In this document: positions 10,060-35,929 of the stretch, piece after piece | Position numbering within the stretch: the stretch's first letter is position 1 | Layout: every line of letters begins with the position of its first letter | Assembly (NCBI RefSeq): GCF_048403405.1 | Contig: NZ_CP183129.1 | DNA from: Escherichia coli | GTDB taxonomy: Bacteria; Pseudomonadota; Gammaproteobacteria; Enterobacterales; Enterobacteriaceae | DNA length: 64,000 nucleotides | Strand: one strand, 5' to 3' | The notes under the pieces: generated by a model | Seen by the model: the letters and a program-made list of their open reading frames with translations, nothing else | Databases searched by the model: none | Told to the model about the DNA's origin: nothing | Translations under genes and position numbers: made by a program

Positions 10060-11552
10060 AAGTGAAATCCAATACGCTGGTCAAAATTCTGGTGCCGTCC
10101 GCACTGGCGTTGGCGGTGCTGATTGGTATCAAAAGCTGCCAGCCCGACACGCCGGTCACCGGCAGCGGACAGGACAACCTGTCTCAGTCAATCAATGACC
10201 TTGACCCAGGGGAGCTGAAGTCACTCGGGATTGAGGGGGATACCCCGGCCGATACACTGAGGACGCTGATTGGCACTATGAAAACGGTACGTGACCGTCA
10301 GGCGGAATTGATCGCCCAGAATGAGAAATTGCTGGAAGAGAATGCGCAGCTGCGTAACCGGCAGCAGAATGTGTCGGGGCAGATCCAGTCTGCGGTGGCT
10401 TCCGTCCGTCAGGAAGCGGAGAGTCAGCAGCGTGCCCTGCAACAGGAGCAGCAGACACTGATGCGGCGTCTGGATAGCCTGGGGGAAACGCTGACAGCAT
10501 CAGGTGGTCAGCCGGCTCAGGGCAGCGGACAAGGCGATATTCCGCTGGGACTGGGGCTGGATACCGGGGGCAGCGGACTGACGGTGAAAGACGGGTTGCT
10601 GTGGGCTGAGCCGCAGGATGCACAACCGGCTGAACCGGGGCGGATGGTGAACGGACAACCGGCTAAACCGGCGTTTCCGACCTCTTTTCTGGAGGATAAC
10701 GCCATTACCCGTCAGAAAGCGGAACTGGACCGGGTGGCCAAAAATCAGCGCACGCTCTCCGGTACAGTGGACGGTGAGGCCCATACCGAACCGGCGTACA
10801 CGATACCGGAGAATGCCACCCTGGTGGGCAGCCAGGCGATGACGGCGTTGCTGGGGCGGGTGCCCATTGACGGTAAAGTGACCGATCCGTATCCGTTCAA
10901 GGTGGTGGTGGGAAAAGACAACCTCACGGCGAACGGCATTGAGTTACCGGATGTGGAAGGGGCGGTGATCAGCGGCTCGGCCACCGGTGACTGGACATTG
11001 TCCTGTGTGCGCGGGGATATCACCTCGATCACCTTTGTTTTTACGGACGGCACGATCCGCACGGTGCCGAAGCCGGCTGACCGGACGGACGGCGGCAGTC
11101 AGGCCAACAGCGGACAGAATGCCCGTAATAACGGCGGGTCGCTCGGCTGGATTTCAGATGAGAGCGGGATCCCGTGTATCAGCGGTGAACGTAAAACCAA
11201 TGCCGGCACCTATCTGCCGACCCTGTTTGCCCTGACGGCAGCGGCCTCGGCCGGGGATGCGATGTCGCAGAGTCAGTATACCGCGCAGAACAACGGGTAC
11301 GGTATCACCTCCTCGCTCTCTGGGGATGCGGGGAAAGCGGCGCTGGGCAGTGCCATCGGCGGCGGGTTTAAGGATGTGGCGGACTGGGTGAAATCCCGCT
11401 ACGGGCAGACCTTTGATGCGGTGTATGTGCCGCCGGGGCAGAAAGTCGCGGTGCATATCAGCCGTCAGATCCCGGTGGATTATGAATCGCAGGGACGCCG
11501 GGTGAATTACGGTTTTTCACTGACAGAGGGTGAGGAAGGAGGTCTGGAGTGA
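10056..11552 (+). CDS. ICE pore protein with coiled coil (PFL_4709-like; VirB10-like role possible)
   Basis: 498 aa, N-terminal TM, Q-rich coiled coil, Gly-rich C-terminal domain. Confidence 0.5.
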   Translation: MKVKSNTLVKILVPSALALAVLIGIKSCQPDTPVTGSGQDNLSQSINDLDPGELKSLGIEGDTPADTLRTLIGTMKTVRDRQAELIAQNEKLLEENAQLRNRQQNVSGQIQSAVASVRQEAESQQRALQQEQQTLMRRLDSLGETLTASGGQPAQGSGQGDIPLGLGLDTGGSGLTVKDGLLWAEPQDAQPAEPGRMVNGQPAKPAFPTSFLEDNAITRQKAELDRVAKNQRTLSGTVDGEAHTEPAYTIPENATLVGSQAMTALLGRVPIDGKVTDPYPFKVVVGKDNLTANGIELPDVEGAVISGSATGDWTLSCVRGDITSITFVFTDGTIRTVPKPADRTDGGSQANSGQNARNNGGSLGWISDESGIPCISGERKTNAGTYLPTLFALTAAASAGDAMSQSQYTAQNNGYGITSSLSGDAGKAALGSAIGGGFKDVADWVKSRYGQTFDAVYVPPGQKVAVHISRQIPVDYESQGRRVNYGFSLTEGEEGGLE

Positions 11553-12034: not shown

Positions 12035-12468
12035 GAATGATGAAATGTGTGATGAAAAGCAGAGTGCTGTGCGCACTGGTGTTGTTGCTGGCCGGCTGTG
12101 CCACCTCCAAAGAGGAGCTGCTGCCGGCGGGAAACAGCGACATGATGGCCATCTGGTCCGGCAGACAGGCTGATCCGAACGGTGCGGCGGACAGCCGGAC
12201 GGTGACGGAGACCGCCCGCAGCGCCCTGCGACGCGCCCTGACGAATGATGAAGCCGCGCGCCTTCAGCAGGCGGACACCGCGTATACCCGGACACAAAGC
12301 AGTGAGATCCATCAGCAGTTTCCGCGTCTGCCGAACCCGGACATGGTGATGTATGTGTTCCCGCATCTCTCGGCCGGCAATCTGCCGGTGCCGGGATACA
12401 GTACGGTGTTTCCGTTTTACCATCAAGTGCAGTATGCCCTGCCGGGTGAGCGTGTGGAGGGCTTGTGA
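12031..12468 (+). CDS. ICE lipoprotein
   Basis: Lipobox LLAGC after signal peptide. Confidence 0.6.
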   Translation: MRMMKCVMKSRVLCALVLLLAGCATSKEELLPAGNSDMMAIWSGRQADPNGAADSRTVTETARSALRRALTNDEAARLQQADTAYTRTQSSEIHQQFPRLPNPDMVMYVFPHLSAGNLPVPGYSTVFPFYHQVQYALPGERVEGL

Positions 12469-15335
12469 TGGGATTTTCATTATTCCGCTCACGCCGGAAA
12501 GCGCAGGCGGTTTCTGCTGAAAAAACGGATGAAAACAAGGCTGACAAAACCGTACACCGCAGTACACCGGCAGAGAATGCCGGTTTAGGCCGTCAGCCGC
12601 TTTCCCGGCCGGGAAAAATGACCCGGGCGGATGAGCAGAAGATTTACCATGCGAATCCGTCCTTTATTGATTACCTGCCCTGGGTGGAATTTCTGGATGA
12701 GGAGCAATGCCTGCTGCTTGATGACGGGGTGTCGGTCGGGGCGGTGTATGCCGTTGAGCCGGCGCCGACGGAAGGGCGCTCTGCCGGCCGTCTGCTCGAA
12801 ATCCGGGATGCGGTGGAGGATGCGCTTCAGGACAGTCTGGATGAGCATGATGATAACCCGTGGGTGGTGCAGTTTTTTTGTCAGGATGAGGACGACGTGA
12901 GCGTCACACTGGCCACATTGCGGGACTATATCCTGCCGGCGGCCCGGGGCACCGCGTTTACCGAAGCCTGGCTGACCGAAATGGCGCGTCATTTACGGGG
13001 GATTGCCCGTCCGGAAGGGCTGTTTAAGGACACGGAGGTGACCGGACAACCCTGGCGCGGACAGCAGCGCCGGACCCGGATGGTGGTTTACCGCCGGCTG
13101 GGGAACAGCTATACCGATCCGATGCCGCCGGTGGCGATGCTCAATCAGATGTGTGACCGGCTGGTCAGCAGTCTGGGCAGTGCCGGCGTGCAGTGTGTCC
13201 GCCAGGACGGGAGGCAGGTGCATCAGTGGCTGCTGCGTCATTTCAATCCGGCCCCTGACTGGGTGGACCGGGAGACGCTGTACCGGGAAGGGGCGTACTG
13301 GCCGGCGGCGGAGGAAGCCCCGGGCACCCTGCCGGTGCTGAAGGATTTTGCGGAAACGCTGTGGTTTACCCCGCCCCGGTCGGATGTGGAAAACGGCGTG
13401 TGGTGGTTTGATAACCTGGCGCACGGTGTGGTGAATATCGAAAAACTGCGTAAAGCCCCGGGGCCGGGGCACCTGACCGGGGAGCAGAAGCGCGGTGACA
13501 AAAATATCAATGCGCTGATGGACCTGTTTCCGGAAGGGACGATGCTGTCGATGACCATCGTCACACAGCCTCAGGATACGCTGGAGCAGGAATTTACCCG
13601 GCTGGGGAAAAACTCGGTGGGGGAAAACACCGACTCGCAACGTACCCGCCGGGACGTGGAAACCGCCAGAGGTTTACTGGGGCACCGCCATAAGCTTTAC
13701 CGGGCCTCCCTGTCATTGCTGCTGCGTGCCGGCTCGGTGGAGGAACTGAACAAAAAGCGCGTGGATCTGACGGCCACGCTGCTGAATGCCGGTCTGGAGC
13801 CGGTGAAGCCGGAATATGATGTGGCGCCGCTGAACGGGTATCTGCGTGCCCTGCCGATGTGTTTTGACCCGCAGACGGATAAAAAACACTGGTATACCCG
13901 GCTGACCTGGGTACAGCACCTGGCCGGATTACTGCCGGTGACCGGGCGCACCAGCGGCACCGGGCATCCCGGCTGGAGTTTCTTTAACCGGGGCGGCGGG
14001 GTGCTGACCTTTGATCCGCAGAATAAACAGGATCGTACCCAGAATGCGCATCTGCTGTTATTCGGTCCCACCGGGGCCGGTAAATCCGCCACCTTATGCG
14101 CACAGTTATCGCAGCTGATGGCGGTCCGCCGTCCGCGTCTGTTTATTGCGGAGGCCGGTAACTCCTTTGGTTTACTGGCGGACTATTACGCCAGTCTGGG
14201 GCTGAGTGTCAATAAGGTCAGTGTCAAGCCCGGCAGCGGGGTGCGTCTGCCGCTGTTTGCGGATGCGCATCAGCTGCTGATGATGGATGAACAGCGTCTG
14301 GCACTGAATGCGGATGAACTGCCAGAGACGGACAGTGAATCTGAGGATGATGACGGGCAGCGTGACATTCTGGGGGAAATGGAAATCTCCGCCCGCATGA
14401 TGATCACCGGCGGGGATGTGCGGGAAGAAGCGGAGCTGAAGCGGGCTGACCGGGCGATGATCCGCCGGGCGCTGATGGCGGGGGCCCGGGCGTCTTATGC
14501 CGCCGACCGGCAGATGCTGCCGGCGGATTTGCAGGAGGCGCTGTATGCCCTCTCCCGGGGGGAAGGTGAAGAGGAAGGGCGGGCATTAAATCCGCAGCGC
14601 CGGGCGAAAGCGGCCGAAATGGCGGAATCCCTGGGGATGTTTACCGAACCGGGCAGTTTTGAGCATGAGCTGTTTAATCTGCCGGGGGAGCTGTGGCCGG
14701 AGGCGGATGTGACCCTGATTGATTTGGGGCACCTGGCGCGGGAAGGGTATGAGGCCCAGATGGCGCTGACGATGGTGAGTCTTATCAACTCCATCAACAA
14801 TATTGCCGAGCGGGATCAGTACCGGGCCCGGGACATTAATTTTGTGGTGGATGAGGCGCATATCGTGACGGTCAACCCGCTGTTATCCCCCTATGTGACC
14901 AAAGTGGTGAAAATGTGGCGGAAACTGGGGGCCTGGCTGTGGCTGGCGACCCAGAACCTCGATGACTATCCGGACTGTGCCGAGAAAATGCTCAATATGG
15001 CGGAGTGGTGGGTGTGTCTGACGATGCCGCAGAAAGAGGTGGAGGCAATCGCCCGCTTTAAGACGCTCAGTGAGGAGCAGAAACAGGTGCTGCTGTCCGC
15101 AGCCAAACTCTCCGGCTGTTACACGGAAGGGGTGGTGCTGGCGCGGAAAGTGGAGGCGCTGTTCCGGGTGGTACAGCCGAGCTTATATCTGGCGCTGGGG
15201 ATGACGGAAAAAGAGGAGAAGCAGCAACGGCGGGTGCTGATGGAGCAATACGGATGCAGTGAGCTGGAAGCGGCGTTCAGGGTGGCAGATGAACTTGACC
15301 GGAAACGGGGGTTACCGCCCCGGGTGCCGGGATGA
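12465..15335 (+). CDS. traC: conjugative transfer ATPase TraC/VirB4-like
   Basis: 956 aa, Walker A GPTGAGKS, Walker B-like DEAH region, size and position typical. Confidence 0.85.
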   Translation: MMGFSLFRSRRKAQAVSAEKTDENKADKTVHRSTPAENAGLGRQPLSRPGKMTRADEQKIYHANPSFIDYLPWVEFLDEEQCLLLDDGVSVGAVYAVEPAPTEGRSAGRLLEIRDAVEDALQDSLDEHDDNPWVVQFFCQDEDDVSVTLATLRDYILPAARGTAFTEAWLTEMARHLRGIARPEGLFKDTEVTGQPWRGQQRRTRMVVYRRLGNSYTDPMPPVAMLNQMCDRLVSSLGSAGVQCVRQDGRQVHQWLLRHFNPAPDWVDRETLYREGAYWPAAEEAPGTLPVLKDFAETLWFTPPRSDVENGVWWFDNLAHGVVNIEKLRKAPGPGHLTGEQKRGDKNINALMDLFPEGTMLSMTIVTQPQDTLEQEFTRLGKNSVGENTDSQRTRRDVETARGLLGHRHKLYRASLSLLLRAGSVEELNKKRVDLTATLLNAGLEPVKPEYDVAPLNGYLRALPMCFDPQTDKKHWYTRLTWVQHLAGLLPVTGRTSGTGHPGWSFFNRGGGVLTFDPQNKQDRTQNAHLLLFGPTGAGKSATLCAQLSQLMAVRRPRLFIAEAGNSFGLLADYYASLGLSVNKVSVKPGSGVRLPLFADAHQLLMMDEQRLALNADELPETDSESEDDDGQRDILGEMEISARMMITGGDVREEAELKRADRAMIRRALMAGARASYAADRQMLPADLQEALYALSRGEGEEEGRALNPQRRAKAAEMAESLGMFTEPGSFEHELFNLPGELWPEADVTLIDLGHLAREGYEAQMALTMVSLINSINNIAERDQYRARDINFVVDEAHIVTVNPLLSPYVTKVVKMWRKLGAWLWLATQNLDDYPDCAEKMLNMAEWWVCLTMPQKEVEAIARFKTLSEEQKQVLLSAAKLSGCYTEGVVLARKVEALFRVVQPSLYLALGMTEKEEKQQRRVLMEQYGCSELEAAFRVADELDRKRGLPPRVPG

Positions 15336-15429
15336 TGAAACGGGTGGAGCAGGGAGTGGGTAAACCGTGTTGCAGCACGGCTTACCCGGCCGCTTCATTG
15401 GGTATGTTAAAAAGAGGAAACATGACGTC

Positions 15430-17655
15430 ATGAAAACGACGGGAGTTAAAGTAACGCTTTTGTCGCTGGTTGTCAGTTATTCCTGCGCTTTACAGGCCAA
15501 AAACGTGTCACTGGGGGACACGGCCGTGGCCACGGGGCAGCACAGTACGGCTGTCGGTGAGGGCAGTATGGCGCTGGGGAACAATATGACGGCGGAACAG
15601 GCGCAGGCGGCGATGAAAGCCCAGAATGCCCTGTTGCAGAACAGGGCGCAGGCGCATGAGCAGTACATGCAGACGCAGGCCCTGTTTGACAGTAAATCGC
15701 TGGCGAACAGCAATATTCTGGAGCGTCAGGAAGCGATGAAACCGTTGTTGCAGCAACAGGAGACCCTGGCGGGTCAGCGTACCGCGCAACAGCAGCAGGT
15801 GACACAGGCACAGCAGGTCGCTGACCGGATGGCACAGATTTATGAACGCAATCTGGGGGCGGTTTCACAGATTGTGGATGAGAATTTTGTGGCGTTGTGG
15901 CAGCAGGGGCAGGCTGACCGTCTGGCTCAGGAAGTGAAAAAACGGGTTGAGCAGGATACGTCGGTCAGTAATGACACGCAGTTTTATGTCAGTTATGTTA
16001 ATGCCTATATTGAAGCGAAAACCAGAAGTGCTCTGGTTAATGAAACCATCAAAGAGAAAACCGGTTCTCAGATTACGACCAACTATCAGGGTGTGGCCCT
16101 GTCCCCGGTACTGAGTGCCGGCCACAGTGATAAAGCGATGCTGTGGTCGGATGCGGTCACGGACAGCGAGCAGAAGAAACAATTATCCCGTTTACACCTG
16201 AATACCGCGGCCCTGAAGGGCGTTGCCGGTTATCAGGAAGAGCTGGCCAAAATCGCCCTGATCACCTCTGCGGACGGGAAAAAGAATCTGTATCAGGCTT
16301 ATCAGAAAAATGCCCGGCAGCAAATTGAGCAGGGGCTCACCGGGGTGACAGAGGCCGGGAAGCAGATCCTGTCAGAGCTGTATCTGGATAACATCGATGA
16401 AGGCACCTTTAATCAGATGGTCAGCGGTATTTTCACCCGCTATGAGAATCAGCTGAACTACCTGATCCAGCTGGATAAGGTCAACAGTTTATCGCCGGAC
16501 AGCCCGGATTATGCCAAAGAGTTACAGCAACTGCTGGTACTGGAAAGCCGTCCCCGGGATAACACCGTCGGGCTGAATACCAACCCGGAGGCGCTGAAAC
16601 AAAAAGTGGATCAGTACCTTCAGGACAATGCGCTCAGTCACACACAGGCCATGTCGTCACAGGCCACACAGCTGAAACAGCAGTTATCGGCGGAAAAAGC
16701 CGTCACCGATCAGGCACTGAAGCAGGCAGAAACGCAACTCTCCCGGCTGGAAAAGGATCTCTCCGCGCTGGATACAAAGTTGTCTGATTTGCGTCCGACG
16801 CAATCCGAGCTGGAAAACATCCGGGATCTGGAGAAGGTGAAAGCCGAACTGGCGCAGAAACAGGCGGAATATCAGGCGGCGGATAAAGCCCTGAATGAGG
16901 CGCAGAGTACGCTGAGTCAGGGTAAACAGGCTGTTGCGGTCGGGGATAAGAGTCTGGCGCTGGGCGAAAAATCCGTGGCACTGAGTGTGGATGCCCGGGC
17001 GCTGGCGAAAAACAGTGTGGCACTGGGGGACGGCAGCCTGGCTGACCGGGATAACAGCGTGTCCGTCGGCCGTGAAGGTCAGGAACGTTTTCTGACGCAT
17101 GTGGCGGCCGGCATTGCAAAAACGGATGCGGTCAACAAAGGGCAACTGGATGAGGAGCGGGATGCGCGTATTGCCGGCGATAAGCAGACGCTGAAACAGG
17201 CCATGGACTACACCGATGTGAGCATTCAGTACAGTGAGGCGAAGATAAACAAGCGGATTACGGAAGAGCAGCAGGCCCGTATTGAGGGGGAGGAACAGAC
17301 CCTGGCGGCCGCAAACCGCTATACCGATGAGACGTTCGGGCAGGTGACCCACACGGTGCTGGACAATGCCCGGCAGTATACCGACCAGCGTTTCAGTCAG
17401 CTGGACAATAAAATCAGTCAGGTGGAGAAACGGGCCAATGCGGGGATTGCCGGGGTGACCGCAATATCTTCCATTCCGTATGTGAACAGTGAGCGTTTTT
17501 CGTTCGGGATGGCGATGGGGCATTACCGTGATGCACAGGCGATAGCCACCGGGGTGCAGTATAAGCCGACGGCCAATACCAATGTGCGCCTGAATGCGTC
17601 ATGGAATAACGGCGGCGATACCAGTATCGGCGCCGGGTTTGCGGTGGGCTGGTAA
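15430..17655 (+). CDS. trimeric autotransporter adhesin-like protein (YadA-type C-terminal anchor)
   Basis: Signal peptide; head-like repeats (SLALGEKSVALS...SVALGDGSLA), neck-like RFLTHVAAG motif, long Q/A-rich coiled-coil stalk, C-terminal beta-barrel anchor ending FSFGMAMGHY...GAGFAVGW. Confidence 0.65.
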   Translation: MKTTGVKVTLLSLVVSYSCALQAKNVSLGDTAVATGQHSTAVGEGSMALGNNMTAEQAQAAMKAQNALLQNRAQAHEQYMQTQALFDSKSLANSNILERQEAMKPLLQQQETLAGQRTAQQQQVTQAQQVADRMAQIYERNLGAVSQIVDENFVALWQQGQADRLAQEVKKRVEQDTSVSNDTQFYVSYVNAYIEAKTRSALVNETIKEKTGSQITTNYQGVALSPVLSAGHSDKAMLWSDAVTDSEQKKQLSRLHLNTAALKGVAGYQEELAKIALITSADGKKNLYQAYQKNARQQIEQGLTGVTEAGKQILSELYLDNIDEGTFNQMVSGIFTRYENQLNYLIQLDKVNSLSPDSPDYAKELQQLLVLESRPRDNTVGLNTNPEALKQKVDQYLQDNALSHTQAMSSQATQLKQQLSAEKAVTDQALKQAETQLSRLEKDLSALDTKLSDLRPTQSELENIRDLEKVKAELAQKQAEYQAADKALNEAQSTLSQGKQAVAVGDKSLALGEKSVALSVDARALAKNSVALGDGSLADRDNSVSVGREGQERFLTHVAAGIAKTDAVNKGQLDEERDARIAGDKQTLKQAMDYTDVSIQYSEAKINKRITEEQQARIEGEEQTLAAANRYTDETFGQVTHTVLDNARQYTDQRFSQLDNKISQVEKRANAGIAGVTAISSIPYVNSERFSFGMAMGHYRDAQAIATGVQYKPTANTNVRLNASWNNGGDTSIGAGFAVGW

Positions 17656-17733
17656 CCGGTGAAAACCCGCCGGTCACCGGCGGGTTTTGATGCGCTTTTC
17701 TTCTCTCACCGTTCGTTTGTGAGGACTGACCGA

Positions 17734-18174
17734 ATGAAAAAACGATTTTTATCTCTTTCCGGATTGCTGATGCTGTCGCTGTCATGCCTGCCGTTGACCG
17801 CCGGGGCGGCAGTGGTGCTGTATACCACGCAGGATGACGCTCTGCCGCAGACGGACATCCCGTTTGAGGTGGTGTATCTGGATGCGCCTGAACGCCTGCT
17901 GGATGAGGCCCTGCTTCAGCCGGGGACGGAACTGAGTGAAGCGGATGCCCTGCACATCACCGCCCTGTTACAAAGTCCGGCCTGGCAGGCCAGAGAAACG
18001 GCATTACGGCAGGCTTATCAGGGCGTGGTTCAGGCCTGGCAGCTGGGGGTGTCATCTCTGCCGGCGGTCGTCGTTGATGCGCAGTGGGTGGTTTACGGCA
18101 CCACCGATATTGCACAGGCGGTGACGCAGATACAGCAGTACCGGGAACAACAGGAAGGAGGAGGTCAACCATGA
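17734..18174 (+). CDS. ICE periplasmic protein (PFL_4711-like)
   Basis: Signal peptide, about 146 aa, in operon. Confidence 0.45.
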   Translation: MKKRFLSLSGLLMLSLSCLPLTAGAAVVLYTTQDDALPQTDIPFEVVYLDAPERLLDEALLQPGTELSEADALHITALLQSPAWQARETALRQAYQGVVQAWQLGVSSLPAVVVDAQWVVYGTTDIAQAVTQIQQYREQQEGGGQP

Positions 18175-19145
18175 CCCGACAATCACATCGCCGGCGTCTG
18201 GCGGGGGCTTTGTTACTCGGTTGTTCACTGGTGCCGGTGGCGGAAGCCAGTCTGAGTACCGCCACTCTGGTCGCTTCTGCGGCCTCACCGTCGTGTATCA
18301 GCTGGCGTATCAGCGGGATTTGCTACTGGCTGAAGTGTGGCTGGGGCGGCTGCCGTATCCGGACATCTGTCCGGGTGTCACATTTTATTCCGCAGGCGGT
18401 GGTCTCGGCCTACCATGCCCCGGGTGAAAACCCGTGGCGGGAAATGTCACTGGTCAGCGGGGCGGCCGGCGGGATTGAAAATGCCGTGACCGGCGTGCTG
18501 AGCGGGGTATCTGCCGGGGGCGGAAACAGTGAACAGAAGTTTGAGGCAAAACGTAAAACCGCCCTGCACTTTTTTTATGCGGATGCTATCGGTCATCCGG
18601 CAACCACCCTTATCGGCGGCAGTATTCCGGGGTATTCCTGTGACAGCGCAGCCACACCGCTGTTTCCTTATTACCTGAGCACGCTCGACAGTGTGCCGTG
18701 GCGGCTCGGTGTGCCGGAAATGGCGTATCCGGAAGCGATAATTCCCGGGAAACGGGAAATCGGGGGGCAGAGCCGGGGCAACATGTGGGGAAATCTCTAT
18801 CCGCGCAGCGGTTTTGTCAACCAGCAGGACGGGGATAAAGCGGCGGCTGTGGTGGCGCAGCGCGTGGCAGATATTATGACCCGCACCGGGCAGGCGCATA
18901 CCTATGTGCCCCTGAAAGGCAACCGCCGGGATGGCTATTGGCCGCCGGACGCGGTGACGGAGAATACCGGGACAAAAAACCATAAATGGCAGCGCCTGTC
19001 GCCGGGGCTGAAAAACAGCTGTGCGGTGTTTCCGGATGAGGGCGGAGCACAGGCACAGGACGGTAATTATGCCTGGGCATTGTGGCAGCCGTACAGCTGC
19101 TGCAAGCGCATGGGGCAAAAATTTCTGTACAGCACAACGTTTTAA
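18171..19145 (+). CDS. TraU-like ICE protein
   Basis: Cys-rich segment CISWRISGICYWLKCGWGGC typical of TraU-like proteins; RBS ggaggagg. Confidence 0.55.
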   Translation: MTRQSHRRRLAGALLLGCSLVPVAEASLSTATLVASAASPSCISWRISGICYWLKCGWGGCRIRTSVRVSHFIPQAVVSAYHAPGENPWREMSLVSGAAGGIENAVTGVLSGVSAGGGNSEQKFEAKRKTALHFFYADAIGHPATTLIGGSIPGYSCDSAATPLFPYYLSTLDSVPWRLGVPEMAYPEAIIPGKREIGGQSRGNMWGNLYPRSGFVNQQDGDKAAAVVAQRVADIMTRTGQAHTYVPLKGNRRDGYWPPDAVTENTGTKNHKWQRLSPGLKNSCAVFPDEGGAQAQDGNYAWALWQPYSCCKRMGQKFLYSTTF

Positions 19146-22493: not shown

Positions 22494-22901
22494 CTAATCT
22501 TCGTCAATATTTATTCCGTTCATATAATATCCAAAACCTTGGTTGCCATTTCTAAAGTCGTCACTATTGCCAACGAGATTGGATTGCCATTCATTATTGT
22601 TATCAGTGGATTGAATGTTATTTCCTGAAGAAATATCAATGTGTTCTATTACAGAAAATAAAATCACCAACGCTCCAAAGGTAAATAGGATGTACAAACT
22701 GAAATAAGCCAGTAACGCGATGACTGCGAGAGTTATAGATACCAGTGGAATATGCCCCAGCCAACCCGGCATATTTTTGCTTTTGGCGCTTGCCACACAG
22801 TTCTTATCGAAAGCCTTCAATTTTTTGATTAGCCATTTTGCTTTATAAGCTGCTTTTATGCCCCAGCGTTCTCCTCTGGAAGCGGCTGTTTTATCACTCA
22901 T
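22494..22901 (-). CDS. hypothetical small membrane protein (AT-rich cargo)
   Basis: 135 aa, central long hydrophobic segment, Asn/Asp-rich tail, very low GC. Confidence 0.4.
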   Translation of the reverse strand: MSDKTAASRGERWGIKAAYKAKWLIKKLKAFDKNCVASAKSKNMPGWLGHIPLVSITLAVIALLAYFSLYILFTFGALVILFSVIEHIDISSGNNIQSTDNNNEWQSNLVGNSDDFRNGNQGFGYYMNGINIDED

Positions 22902-23243
22902 TTCCCCCTCCGGTAATCAGTGAGTCTGATTTATCTCATGCTTGTCGTCTATCGTTAATACAATTTTAGGTCGATTTTTAATCATTGTCTACATCTTGTG
23001 AGTTATGCACATATCCACGGTCACCAAGCCAGTGCAACCCGATGCCAACAAGCAATCGGGTAAACGGGAGCGTACAGGGCATCGGCCCTGATGGTGGCGG
23101 TGGGTATGTGTATAACTTTTTTGTTGCCTTCATATAAAAATCTTATTCTTTCATCTGGATGGATTTATTGAATTTGATTTTTTATGTCAGTTTAAGTAAG
23201 TTTTTAATATGTATCCGAGTCCTTGTATATAGGAGATGATAAT

Positions 23244-23543
23244 ATGAATTTTATTTTTTGGTTTGTGGTCTTAATAGGGGCGGGATATTTGTGGAGGAGG
23301 AGGGGTTGGTTCAGTAAAATAAGGAAGCAATACTCAAGGAGAAAAACAACATTAAATGGTAACAAAGGATGTTTATATAATAAAAAAAATGACAATGATG
23401 CTTTGGAAGGTAATGGGGATTGTAATAATTTTTATTCTGAGAATAAAGAAAGTTTCTTTTGGTTAATGATTGAGAGAGGTATTAAATTTTACAGAAAAGA
23501 ATATTTGACTACGATTACTGAAAAAAATATCATGATAAGTTAG
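23244..23543 (+). CDS. hypothetical small membrane protein (AT-rich cargo)
   Basis: N-terminal TM followed by basic stretch; RBS aggag 8 nt upstream of ATG 23244. Confidence 0.4.
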   Translation: MNFIFWFVVLIGAGYLWRRRGWFSKIRKQYSRRKTTLNGNKGCLYNKKNDNDALEGNGDCNNFYSENKESFFWLMIERGIKFYRKEYLTTITEKNIMIS

Positions 23544-23782
23544 TGAGCTGGTTTGGTGAGAAATGTTATATACATTGTCAGGTTAGTTTAGGGAGTTTAT
23601 TTATATTCCCAAAACAAAAAAATTTTACTGATGAAGAACAAAAACGTTTTTTTTCTGTTTGTAATAGAATGTCCTTGGATTTTATTTTAACATTTAAAAC
23701 TAATATGCCCTTCTTACGTGTTTCTGTTGACTCTATGAAAAATAAACCGCCTGTTTGGGATGTTTATGATAAATCCAAATAA
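23543..23782 (+). CDS. hypothetical small protein, overlapping previous stop
   Basis: 79-aa ORF, ATGA overlap with upstream gene suggests coupling. Confidence 0.3.
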   Translation: MSWFGEKCYIHCQVSLGSLFIFPKQKNFTDEEQKRFFSVCNRMSLDFILTFKTNMPFLRVSVDSMKNKPPVWDVYDKSK

Positions 23783-23957
23783 AAACATATCTGATTGTTG
23801 AGTTTTCGTGATTAAAGATGGCATTGATTATTAATACGATGAAGAACCAACAAGGGGATATTTAATAAAGAGAAAAAGGAGGATGTAAAATATTCTCCTT
23901 TTTCTTTATCGGGTATTGACGAAAAAAGAAAGTTTGATTAAATTTACCACGTTACAC

Positions 23958-24176
23958 CGTTGCTTAATGCAACATTGCCAATGCTTCGGTTGTCTGAGAG
24001 AAGCGCCTACGGGTGACAACAATGCCAATCCGGCAATCTGAGAGGAACGCCTACGGGTGATTGCCACTGCCAATCCTCGGGTCATCTGAGACGAGGGCCT
24101 ACGGGCGATGACAGAACTCCGTTCGTCCTTGAAATCGACGGAGGGTGATAACAGAATAGCGTTATCATCAGGATTA
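23958..24176 (+). repeat. Structured direct repeat copy 1 (three tandem hairpin units plus two further hairpins)
   Basis: Near-identical to 26392-26612; three about 45-nt units with stems gttgtc/gacaac, ggcaatc/gattgcc, gtcatc/gatgac around a conserved loop tgaga..gcctacggg. Confidence 0.8.
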
Positions 24177-26391: not shown

Positions 26392-26612
26392 CGTTGCGTA
26401 ATGCAACTTGCCAATGCTTCGGTTGTCTGAGAGAAGCGCCTACGGGTGACAACAATGCCAATGTTCCGGCAATCTGAGAGGAACGCCTACGGGTGATTGC
26501 CACTGCCAATCCTCGGGTCATCTGAGACGGGAGCCTACGGGCGATGACAGAACTCCGTTCGTCCTTGAAATCGACGGAGGGTGATAACAGAATAGCGTTA
26601 TCATCAGGATTA
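26392..26612 (+). repeat. Structured direct repeat copy 2
   Basis: Same orientation as 23958-24176; differs by 3 substitutions and two small indels. Confidence 0.8.
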
Positions 26613-35853: not shown

Positions 35854-35929
35854 TGGTGCCCGGACTCGGAATCGAACCAAGGACACGGGGATTTTCAATC
35901 CCCTGCTCTACCGACTGAGCTATCCGGGC
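35854..35929 (-). tRNA. pheV: tRNA-Phe (GAA anticodon)
   Basis: Reverse complement reads GCCCGGATAGCTCAGTCGGTAGAGCAGGGGATTGAAAATCCCCGTGTCCTTGGTTCGATTCCGAGTCCGGGCACCA, the canonical E. coli tRNA-Phe, 76 nt with CCA. Confidence 0.95.

Follow-up and report, generated by a model that had tools for sequence, protein, structure and literature searches.

Background

ICEPm1 is a tRNA-Phe ICE with hosts in Proteus, Providencia, Morganella, Escherichia and Klebsiella (PMC11278526). It carries TaaP (PMC12016157), the 'trimeric autoagglutinin autotransporter of Proteus', whose gene, PMI2575, occurs on ICEs with a T4SS (PMC12388390). The passages on TaaP in PMC11599158 and PMC10469602 describe autoaggregation and affinity for the extracellular matrix, and the functions reported for it, as cited second-hand in these papers and PMC12016157, comprise cell-cell autoagglutination, extracellular matrix binding and an advantage in urinary-tract colonisation. 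Surface adhesins that promote donor-recipient contact are encoded by conjugation modules as well, e.g. PrgB of pCF10 and TraN of the F plasmid (PMC10588982).

Among trimeric autotransporter adhesins (TAAs), YadA from Yersinia and SadA from Salmonella have the C-terminal anchor, stalk, neck and YadA-like head repeats in common with TaaP. The homology is limited to approximately the C-terminal third of TaaP (aa ~495-741), whereas its ~430-aa helical module and extra N-terminal tip have no counterpart in YadA or SadA. Saa, the STEC autoagglutinating adhesin from plasmid pO113, resembles TaaP in being a TAA of a mobile element that causes autoagglutination, and Saa genes on E. coli plasmids match the C-terminal portion, aa 473-761, of a TaaP relative discussed below (P0143) with 36-40% identity. 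However, no similarity extends to the N-terminal passenger module, and Saa is located outside any T4SS operon.

Identity of the gene

The window analysed here is a stretch of 64,000 nucleotides from Escherichia coli (contig NZ_CP183129.1). The DNA of the gene at 15430-17655 is 100% identical both to RefSeq taaP (WP_004239700.1), as present in 12 or more E. coli genomes, and to the copy in Proteus mirabilis ATCC 29906, while alleles from mouse E. coli show 94% nucleotide identity. TaaP orthology is indicated by the sequence identity to the named protein together with the place on a tRNA-Phe ICE with an MPF_G T4SS, and the gene is very probably taaP (PMI2575), accessory cargo of ICEPm1 inserted at tRNA-Phe in the E. 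coli chromosome. It corresponds to TaaP of P. mirabilis HI4320 / ICEPm1 as the same gene (741 aa, about 78 kDa) in the same tRNA-Phe ICE context, and differs in that the host is E. coli and not Proteus. The tRNA-Phe gene marks the right end of the ICE (Table 1), and beyond it the E. coli chromosome continues with yqgA and speC. Positions 1-37704 of the window are 99.6-99.9% identical to E. coli M24, and the RefSeq annotation of the identical M24 locus was the source of the neighbour-gene calls. A megablast search of the PLSDB plasmids with taaP gave no matches. TaaP is shorter in other alleles (ICEPm2/3-type, Providencia), with 691 or 680 aa, because of in-frame deletions of aa 106-155 or 416-476, both inside the aa 55-485 module.

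Thus, the gene was already known, as a published adhesin on a published ICE; its re-identification therefore adds little, and what the window documents is ICEPm1, taaP included, in an E. coli chromosome. The initial annotation had missed this named and experimentally studied identity, for which autoagglutination and matrix binding are the published activities.

Table 1. Coordinates of taaP, the parts of its product and the neighbouring features in the window
Feature	Position	Strand	Basis
Conjugative transfer ATPase, TraC/VirB4-like, PFL_4706 family, MPF_G T4SS; upstream slot border	12468..15335	+	RefSeq; PF11130 TraC_F_IV in homologues
Intergenic gap, 94 bp, with AAGAGGAAA ribosome-binding site	15336..15429	+	sequence
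taaP (trimeric autotransporter adhesin TaaP), 741 aa + stop	15430..17655	+	ORF and translation
Sec signal peptide, aa 1-23, MKTTGVKVTLLSLVVSYSCALQA	15430..15498	+	inspection of translation
N-terminal YadA-head-like repeats, aa 25-52	15502..15585	+	Pfam YadA_head aa 29-52, E 0.0047
TaaP-specific passenger module, mostly alpha-helical, aa 55-485	15592..16884	+	no Pfam family
YadA-like head repeats, aa 495-550	16912..17079	+	Pfam YadA_head aa 497-518, 526-547; PDB matches SadA, BpaC, YadA heads
Neck, aa 553-575, RFLTHVAAGIAKTDAVNKGQLDE	17086..17154	+	Pfam PF05662 aa 556-575, E 3.9e-5
Coiled-coil stalk, aa 576-670	17155..17439	+	PDB YadA stalk fragments 3h7x, 3lt7 over aa 622-681
YadA-type membrane anchor, aa 671-741, four beta-strands per monomer	17440..17652	+	Pfam PF03895; PDB 2lme, 3emo, 2gr7
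GC-rich hairpin AAAACCCGCCGG-TCA-CCGGCGGGTTTT, intrinsic-terminator-like, 6 nt past taaP stop	17662..17688	+	sequence, RNA fold
TIGR03757/DUF1525 integrating conjugative element protein; downstream slot border	17734..18174	+	RefSeq; PF07511 in homologues
TIGR03756 (TraU-like) T4SS gene	18171..19145	+	RefSeq; PF06834 TraU in homologues
tRNA-Phe, integration site, right end of ICE	35854..35929	-	ARAGORN

Reading frame and expression signals

In the ORF listing of the window, the open frame containing taaP extends on the + strand from a GTG at 15367 to 17655. The Shine-Dalgarno-like AAGAGGAAA precedes the ATG at 15430, from which the 741-aa product is read and which is also the RefSeq start. That the frame is a chance ORF or a decayed pseudogene has a negligible probability: the many overlapping minus-strand ORFs, usual in GC-rich DNA, are all that speaks for it, and it is ruled out by strong domain matches (Pfam, NCBIfam, PDB) and by intact copies, 99.7-100% conserved in at least 12 E. 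coli genomes among the matches listed, and by its membership in a cluster of 658 protein sequences.

A consensus-based promoter scan of the 94-bp gap upstream of taaP found no sigma-70-like site, so transcription of the gene may depend on the T4SS operon. Such dependence would fit a role linked to transfer as well as a role as pure cargo. The hairpin that follows the stop codon folds with -26.9 kcal/mol (z = -3.2 against shuffles), and a simple terminator scan gave no call there.

Domain architecture

Judged by its sequence, TaaP is a genuine type Vc (YadA-class) trimeric autotransporter adhesin, which combines a YadA-like anchor and a Sec signal peptide with head, neck and stalk modules, a set of features for which chance is excluded by a wide margin. 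The signal peptide, recognised by inspection, displays a basic n-region, a hydrophobic core and an A-x-A-like site at the junction of MKTTGVKVTLLSLVVSYSCALQA with the following K. The Pfam YadA_head model produced three matches, each weak alone, but the head-neck region aligns strongly (E 1e-16 to 1e-12) with SadA, BpaC and YadA in the PDB, the matches being SadA (2yo0, E 2.5e-16), BpaC (7o23, E 6.9e-13) and the YadA head (1p9h, E 1.6e-12); the YadA anchor (2lme, E 1e-6) and Hia (3emo) were identified as well. The RFLTHVAAG motif occupies aa 553-561 within the neck, which aligns residue by residue with the necks of SadA and BpaC in the PDB sequence search. The NCBIfam YadA_autotrans model covers aa 622-741, accompanied by a match to the BimA C-terminus, and the Pfam YadA_anchor (PF03895) was found at aa 687-741 with E 9.5e-11, the protein ending in GAGFAVGW with the aromatic residue W741. 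The initial annotation had described a 741-aa YadA-type protein with signal peptide, head repeats, RFLTHVAAG neck, stalk and GAGFAVGW anchor, and had named the match to the YadA anchor model as a test; every one of these elements is present and the anchor search was positive. The anchor also contains Gly-708, the residue reported as essential for trimerisation, and TaaP was reported by Alamuri et al. in 2010 to be an obligate homotrimer on the outer membrane.

No Pfam match was obtained across aa 55-485, and an AF2 model of this module, built from a four-sequence alignment, is all-helical with low confidence (pLDDT 48). By inference from the family, TaaP would be exported via Sec by means of its N-terminal signal peptide, three C-terminal anchors would assemble into a 12-stranded outer-membrane barrel, and the passenger would be threaded outward to form a surface fibre. 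Beyond the stalk, neck and YadA-like head, this fibre would continue distally with the helical module peculiar to TaaP and with a small head-like tip at the N-terminus.

Relatives of the N-terminal module

Among the 1.84 billion representative proteins searched, the N-terminal module has, besides the TaaP alleles, only two distant relatives, P0142 and P0143, both encoded directly 3' of VirB/Trb-type T4SS operons, on the same strand and after the VirD4 coupling protein. A third relative was found on an Acinetobacter megaplasmid, ~6 kb from traN/traG; this record was the only match in a tblastn search of plasmids with the P0143 module. The N-terminal head-like repeats are kept in all three relatives. 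Neither full-length TaaP nor the four-sequence alignment of the N-terminal module, used as queries in a word-indexed search, led beyond the TaaP alleles, and P0142 and P0143 were missed too. In a near-identical plasmid backbone, a PcfJ-like gene stands in place of the TAA.

Gene order in the transfer operon

The gene is read on the strand of the T4SS operon, with the TraC-like ATPase gene before it and the TIGR03757 gene after it, and a TraG_N gene is also among those 3' of it. The location between a VirB4/TraC-like ATPase and TraU-like/TraG-like genes, as given in the initial annotation, is borne out by the ATPase end at 15335 and the TIGR03757/TIGR03756/TraG_N genes from 17734. The slot between ATPase and TIGR03757 genes spans from 62 bp to >10 kb in 80 related loci, only two of which, both ICEPm1, contain taaP. 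It was not found at the slot in the closest non-ICEPm relatives or in Pseudomonas MPF_G elements, and gene order confines it to the ICEPm1/2/3 clade. One close relative without taaP still has 145 nt left over from the 3' end of the gene, and one element with a truncated T4SS retains an intact taaP. A small ORF 3' of the ATPase, present in at least 25 relatives, was sought in the window and is absent from ICEPm1.

The slot is empty in six Photorhabdus loci, and at 16 Xenorhabdus loci it holds intimin/invasin-type inverse autotransporters, which are like TaaP in slot, strand (that of the operon) and nature as type V surface adhesins, but belong to subclass Ve, have no sequence relationship to TaaP and come from another host clade. 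Other relatives carry there VgrG/Rhs, IteA/IteS, FHA, a retron, dCTP deaminase, a TonB-dependent receptor, a type Va autotransporter or DsbA/RadC. The cargo classes outside ICEPm comprise autotransporters of types Va, Vb and Ve, effectors of the T6SS and anti-phage systems.

Because the anchor matches its model and the gene is absent from nearly all relatives, taaP can be regarded as encoding a true YadA-type TAA and its status as a lineage-specific insertion into the mating-pore operon is supported. The initial annotation had likewise placed the adhesin outside the conserved ICE core, as a lineage-specific insertion, and the gene-order comparison it proposed came out in favour of this: taaP does not occupy the position in most family members. 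Very probably, taaP entered a cargo hotspot of the MPF_G operon in the ancestor of the ICEPm1/2/3 clade, in operon orientation and with its own terminator-like hairpin behind it, and does not belong to the T4SS core.

It is very improbable that taaP encodes a conserved structural part of the MPF_G mating pore, such as a TraN replacement or an outer-membrane pore element, as the core T4SS genes flanking it in the same orientation might suggest. A core gene of the MPF_G type (ICEHin1056 / PAPI-1 / ICEclc) would be expected at a conserved position in most members, but taaP is absent from 78 of the 80 loci, and its alleles tolerate in-frame deletions of 50-61 aa. A core component is refuted by this comparison.

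Possible role in conjugation

Or perhaps TaaP could be primarily a conjugation accessory, an aggregating or mating-pair-stabilising adhesin produced together with the T4SS, by which donors and recipients would be clumped and ICE transfer increased, mainly in liquid, host adhesion being a side effect? We consider this unlikely, though several observations point that way. The gene is co-oriented within the T4SS operon and has no predicted promoter of its own, autoagglutination is the phenotype known for TaaP, and the slot of related ICEs repeatedly holds operon-oriented type V surface proteins (Va and Vb besides Ve). Since the distant relatives of the N-terminal module adjoin unrelated conjugation operons or sit on a conjugative megaplasmid, a role in mating aggregation is possible. 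PrgB aggregation substance and TraN offer this proposal a functional analogy only, with no homology to TaaP. Against it, the slot also accepts the unrelated cargo listed above, from retron to DsbA; most family members transfer with no adhesin there, as the empty Photorhabdus slots illustrate; the hairpin 3' of taaP is what a self-contained cassette would have; and the T4SS-truncated element keeps taaP intact. Adjacency to a T4SS is not very improbable on plasmids of ~40 kb, and a PcfJ-like gene takes the place of the TAA in a near-identical backbone. The literature searched yielded neither a report of a transfer phenotype of TaaP nor a link between TAAs and mating-pair stabilisation.

A broader version, to which we also attach a low probability, is that TaaP belongs to a small TAA family restricted to conjugative elements, defined by the ~430-aa helical module and recruited next to T4SSs of three unrelated kinds (the MPF_G type of ICEPm1-3, the VirB type on two plasmids and the F type on the Acinetobacter megaplasmid), which would be selected for donor-recipient aggregation, with a slot that may favour type V adhesins (Va, Vb, Vc, Ve). 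If clumping by TaaP raised transfer, a 'virulence factor' would become a selfish transfer aid, and Gram-negative ICEs would gain a counterpart of the Gram-positive aggregation substance. The ATPase-TIGR03757 junction itself is a hotspot for cargo throughout the family, which has received all four adhesin-type type V classes as well as defence and T6SS cargo.

Identity and domain composition of TaaP

The taaP gene lies in the single long plus-strand ORF revealed by the ORF listing of the window (15367–17655), in which the ATG at 15430, also chosen as the start codon by RefSeq, is preceded by AAGAGGAAA and gives a product of 741 aa. In the PDB sequence search, aa ~495–578 aligned to the head and neck of SadA (2yo0, E-value 2.5e-16), BpaC (7o23) and YadA (1p9h), and aa 622–741 to fragments of the YadA stalk as well as to the anchors of YadA and Hia. 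Among the NCBIfam models, those for YadA and BimA matched in their C-terminal parts, with scores well under the full-length cut-offs, as expected for a trimeric autotransporter adhesin (TAA) with a differing passenger. Together with the Pfam matches to the head, neck and anchor and the two motifs read from the translation (Table), these results confirm every detail of the initial annotation, which had described a YadA-type protein of this length, and its C-terminus does match the YadA anchor model.

The megablast search of complete E. coli genomes revealed 26 chromosomal matches to taaP, at least 12 of them at 99.7–100% identity and thirteen at about 94%; all among the matches listed are annotated as 'taaP: trimeric autotransporter adhesin TaaP'. 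E. coli M24 encodes the product (WP_004239700.1) in an element that is bounded by tRNA-Phe and also contains PilL2, TraD, a series of TIGR037xx 'integrating conjugative element' genes, a conjugative ATPase, TraG_N, ArdC, a TraI-domain relaxase and a tyrosine integrase. The M24 locus and positions 1–37704 of the window are 99.6–99.9% identical, a match that extends to yqgA and speC, E. coli genes located past the tRNA-Phe, and therefore the window represents an E. coli chromosome with this ICE. P. mirabilis ATCC 29906 shows 99.9% identity over 22.9 kb of the same region.

From the literature the element is identified as ICEPm1, a tRNA-Phe-specific element of 92.6 kb that is common in P. mirabilis and near-identical in Providencia, Morganella, Escherichia and Klebsiella; the mouse E. 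coli elements at ~94% correspond to ICEPm2 (PMC11278526). TaaP is carried by ICEPm1 (PMC12016157), and PMI2575 is listed among genes on ICEs with a T4SS (PMC12388390). Three further papers name TaaP the 'trimeric autoagglutinin autotransporter of Proteus' and describe autoaggregation as well as an affinity for extracellular matrix (PMC11599158; PMC10469602; PMC8232601). Publications thus already cover the gene and its family as well as the phenotype and the ICE. Residue 708 of TaaP, which falls in the anchor, is a glycine. Alamuri et al. in 2010 reportedly described TaaP as a trimer-forming protein of ~78 kDa with a requirement for Gly-708, which mediates autoagglutination and aids colonisation in mice; the length of 741 aa and the glycine at this position are consistent with that description.

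The promoter scan identified no sigma-70-like promoter in the 94-bp gap upstream of taaP, which contains a ribosome-binding site. Six nucleotides past the stop codon starts a AAAACCCGCCGG-TCA-CCGGCGGGTTTT hairpin (-26.9 kcal/mol, z = -3.2), which resembles an intrinsic terminator. Within taaP the GC content falls to 51–57%, versus 59–65% in the upstream T4SS genes and 59–62% just downstream. The gap, the hairpin and the GC dip would fit an acquired cassette read from the operon promoter.

A cargo hotspot in the transfer operon

The gene occupies a slot between the TraC/VirB4-like conjugative ATPase gene and the TIGR03757 gene of the MPF_G transfer operon. For comparison, 14 ATPase homologues were aligned, 80 loci were fetched (one genome per species) and the flanking genes were placed by tblastn; handles with prefix L denote these and other loci compared below. 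The distance from the ATPase end to TIGR03757 varies widely: the slot is empty (62–102 bp) in six Photorhabdus loci, measures ~0.5–0.7 kb where a small ORF is its sole content, reaches 9.7 kb among loci with both borders located, and extends over 10 kb or more in 19 loci whose downstream border falls outside the fetched flank. In most Enterobacterales relatives the small ORF directly follows the stop codon of the ATPase gene or overlaps it; its family was sought in ICEPm1 and found absent there.

According to tblastn, only the two ICEPm1 loci among the 80 encode TaaP. The nearest non-ICEPm relatives (ATPase 85–86% identical) have a 136–147-aa ORF of this same family alone in the slot, and in Pseudomonas MPF_G elements it holds a DsbA-like protein, or a thioredoxin-domain protein and RadC. 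This gene-order comparison bears out the proposal of the initial annotation that the adhesin gene is a lineage-specific insertion in the mating-pore operon. In L087 and L088, which otherwise lack taaP, the small ORF is followed, in fusion, by a remnant of ~145 nt with ~80% identity to the final 145 nt of taaP, stop codon included; therefore a TaaP-like gene was formerly present in that lineage and was later deleted. The slot both gains and loses cargo. With TaaP and the intimin-like proteins counted, four type V subclasses (Va, Vb, Vc and Ve) occur in it, and it is a general cargo hotspot in which surface proteins of type V are noticeably represented.

Features of TaaP, of the slot in related loci and of distant relatives
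Feature	Location	Remarks
YadA_head repeats (three)	TaaP aa 29–52, 497–518, 526–547	Pfam, each weak alone
RFLTHVAAG motif	TaaP aa 553–561	translation
Neck/stalk motif	TaaP aa 556–575	Pfam, E-value 3.9e-5
YadA_anchor	TaaP aa 687–741	Pfam, E-value 9.5e-11
GAGFAVGW	TaaP C-terminal end	translation
Helical segments deleted in other alleles	TaaP aa 106–155 and 416–476 (window 15745–15894 and 16675–16857)	
Small post-ATPase ORF, ~131–147 aa	L073:12823–13227, L087:10874–11317, L089:10859–11269	at least 25 loci; no family assignment
taaP 3' remnant	L087:~11301–11441; also L088	
ATPase–DUF3438 fusion	L090:8001–11051	
Intimin/invasin-type inverse autotransporters (type Ve), ~1081 aa	16 Xenorhabdus loci, e.g. 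L075:2682–5927 (+); also L027, L030, L032, L035, L036, L044, L046, L048, L061, L064, L072 and others	all on operon strand; NF033627, E-value 1e-132
Classical type Va autotransporter (PF03797 beta-domain, PEPEPQ linker)	L005:13371–15773 (+), L004:10962–13472 (+)	both Xenorhabdus; Pfam run on L005
Filamentous-haemagglutinin two-partner pair	L011:14277–22828 (+)	Serratia marcescens
VgrG and Rhs	several Xenorhabdus loci	
IteA/IteS	L015	
Retron Ec67	L050	
Anti-phage dCTP deaminase	L074	
TonB-dependent receptor	L053	
Two distant TaaP-family TAAs	L082:10001–12286, L083:10001–12012	26–29% identity in N-module
Acinetobacter TAA	L084:13884–18560 into L085:1–1362	across record origin

The passenger N-module and its distant relatives

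No Pfam family matched aa 55–485 of TaaP (the N-module), and the AF2 model of this region is helical and unreliable (pLDDT 48). In other TaaP alleles, of 691 and 680 aa, segments of 50 and 61 aa inside the N-module are cleanly deleted in frame, a pattern typical of spacer-like segments in a fibre. When 1.84 billion representative proteins were searched exhaustively with phmmer, the only matches besides TaaP alleles and fragments were two distant relatives, P0142 (29% identity) and P0143 (26%), which possess the whole architecture of TaaP, including motifs such as W..G..D.LA....VE.GT....FY..Y. Their genes are located directly downstream of VirB/Trb-type T4SS operons on the same strand, in the order VirB4, TrbL, VirB8, CagX, TrbI, VirB11, VirD4, small ORF, TAA. 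The Serratia plasmid pE36_3, with a near-identical backbone, has a PcfJ-like gene where the TAA would be, and therefore the TAA is accessory on those plasmids too. In L082, TopB and Hha are encoded downstream of the TAA.

A third relative, a TAA of >1,570 aa with a TaaP-like N-module, is encoded on the 299-kb Acinetobacter plasmid NZ_CP015111.1, ~6 kb from traN/traG. The gene runs across the start of the record and for this reason is unannotated; a stop codon in frame divides it from the annotated 'YadA C-terminal' CDS. Extra homologue searches with the N-module alignment and tblastn of the P0143 N-module against plasmids identified no family members beyond this record.

Adhesion or mating-aggregate stabilisation

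TaaP is very likely a genuine type Vc adhesin, encoded as cargo in the ICEPm1 transfer-operon hotspot, whose function at the cell surface is autoagglutination and adhesion to matrix. Alternatively, as the initial annotation proposed, TaaP could stabilise mating aggregates, as its autoagglutination phenotype, the position and orientation of its gene inside the transfer operon and the location of all known N-module relatives on conjugative elements may suggest. This appears unlikely, since unrelated, mixed cargo occupies the same slot elsewhere, many relatives have it empty, and a terminator-like hairpin follows taaP. Moreover, L090, a 91% relative (ICEPm-like, GCA_031872095.1), retains the 691-aa allele intact, although its ATPase gene is fused to the N-terminus of DUF3438 (TIGR03749-like) and the TIGR03752 and TIGR03751 genes are missing; its T4SS is probably defective. 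The literature searched yielded no TAA tied to mating-pair stabilisation. The adhesin role and a role in mating aggregates are compatible and not mutually exclusive. Modest additions to published knowledge, open to testing, are the survey of slot contents, the taaP remnant left by deletion and the association of the N-module with conjugative elements.

Other features of the element

Just past the TraG_N gene, at window 22500–24000, the GC content falls sharply to 30–38%, versus 55–62% in the T4SS module; the identical M24 locus is annotated here with a gene for DUF3742 and with small hypothetical ones. Repeats of ~160–220 bp are present inside the ICE (window ~23958–24176 and ~26392–26612), with cross-matches at 85–97% identity to two places in L001, and near 24017–24061 the window and E. 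coli M24 differ slightly in length.
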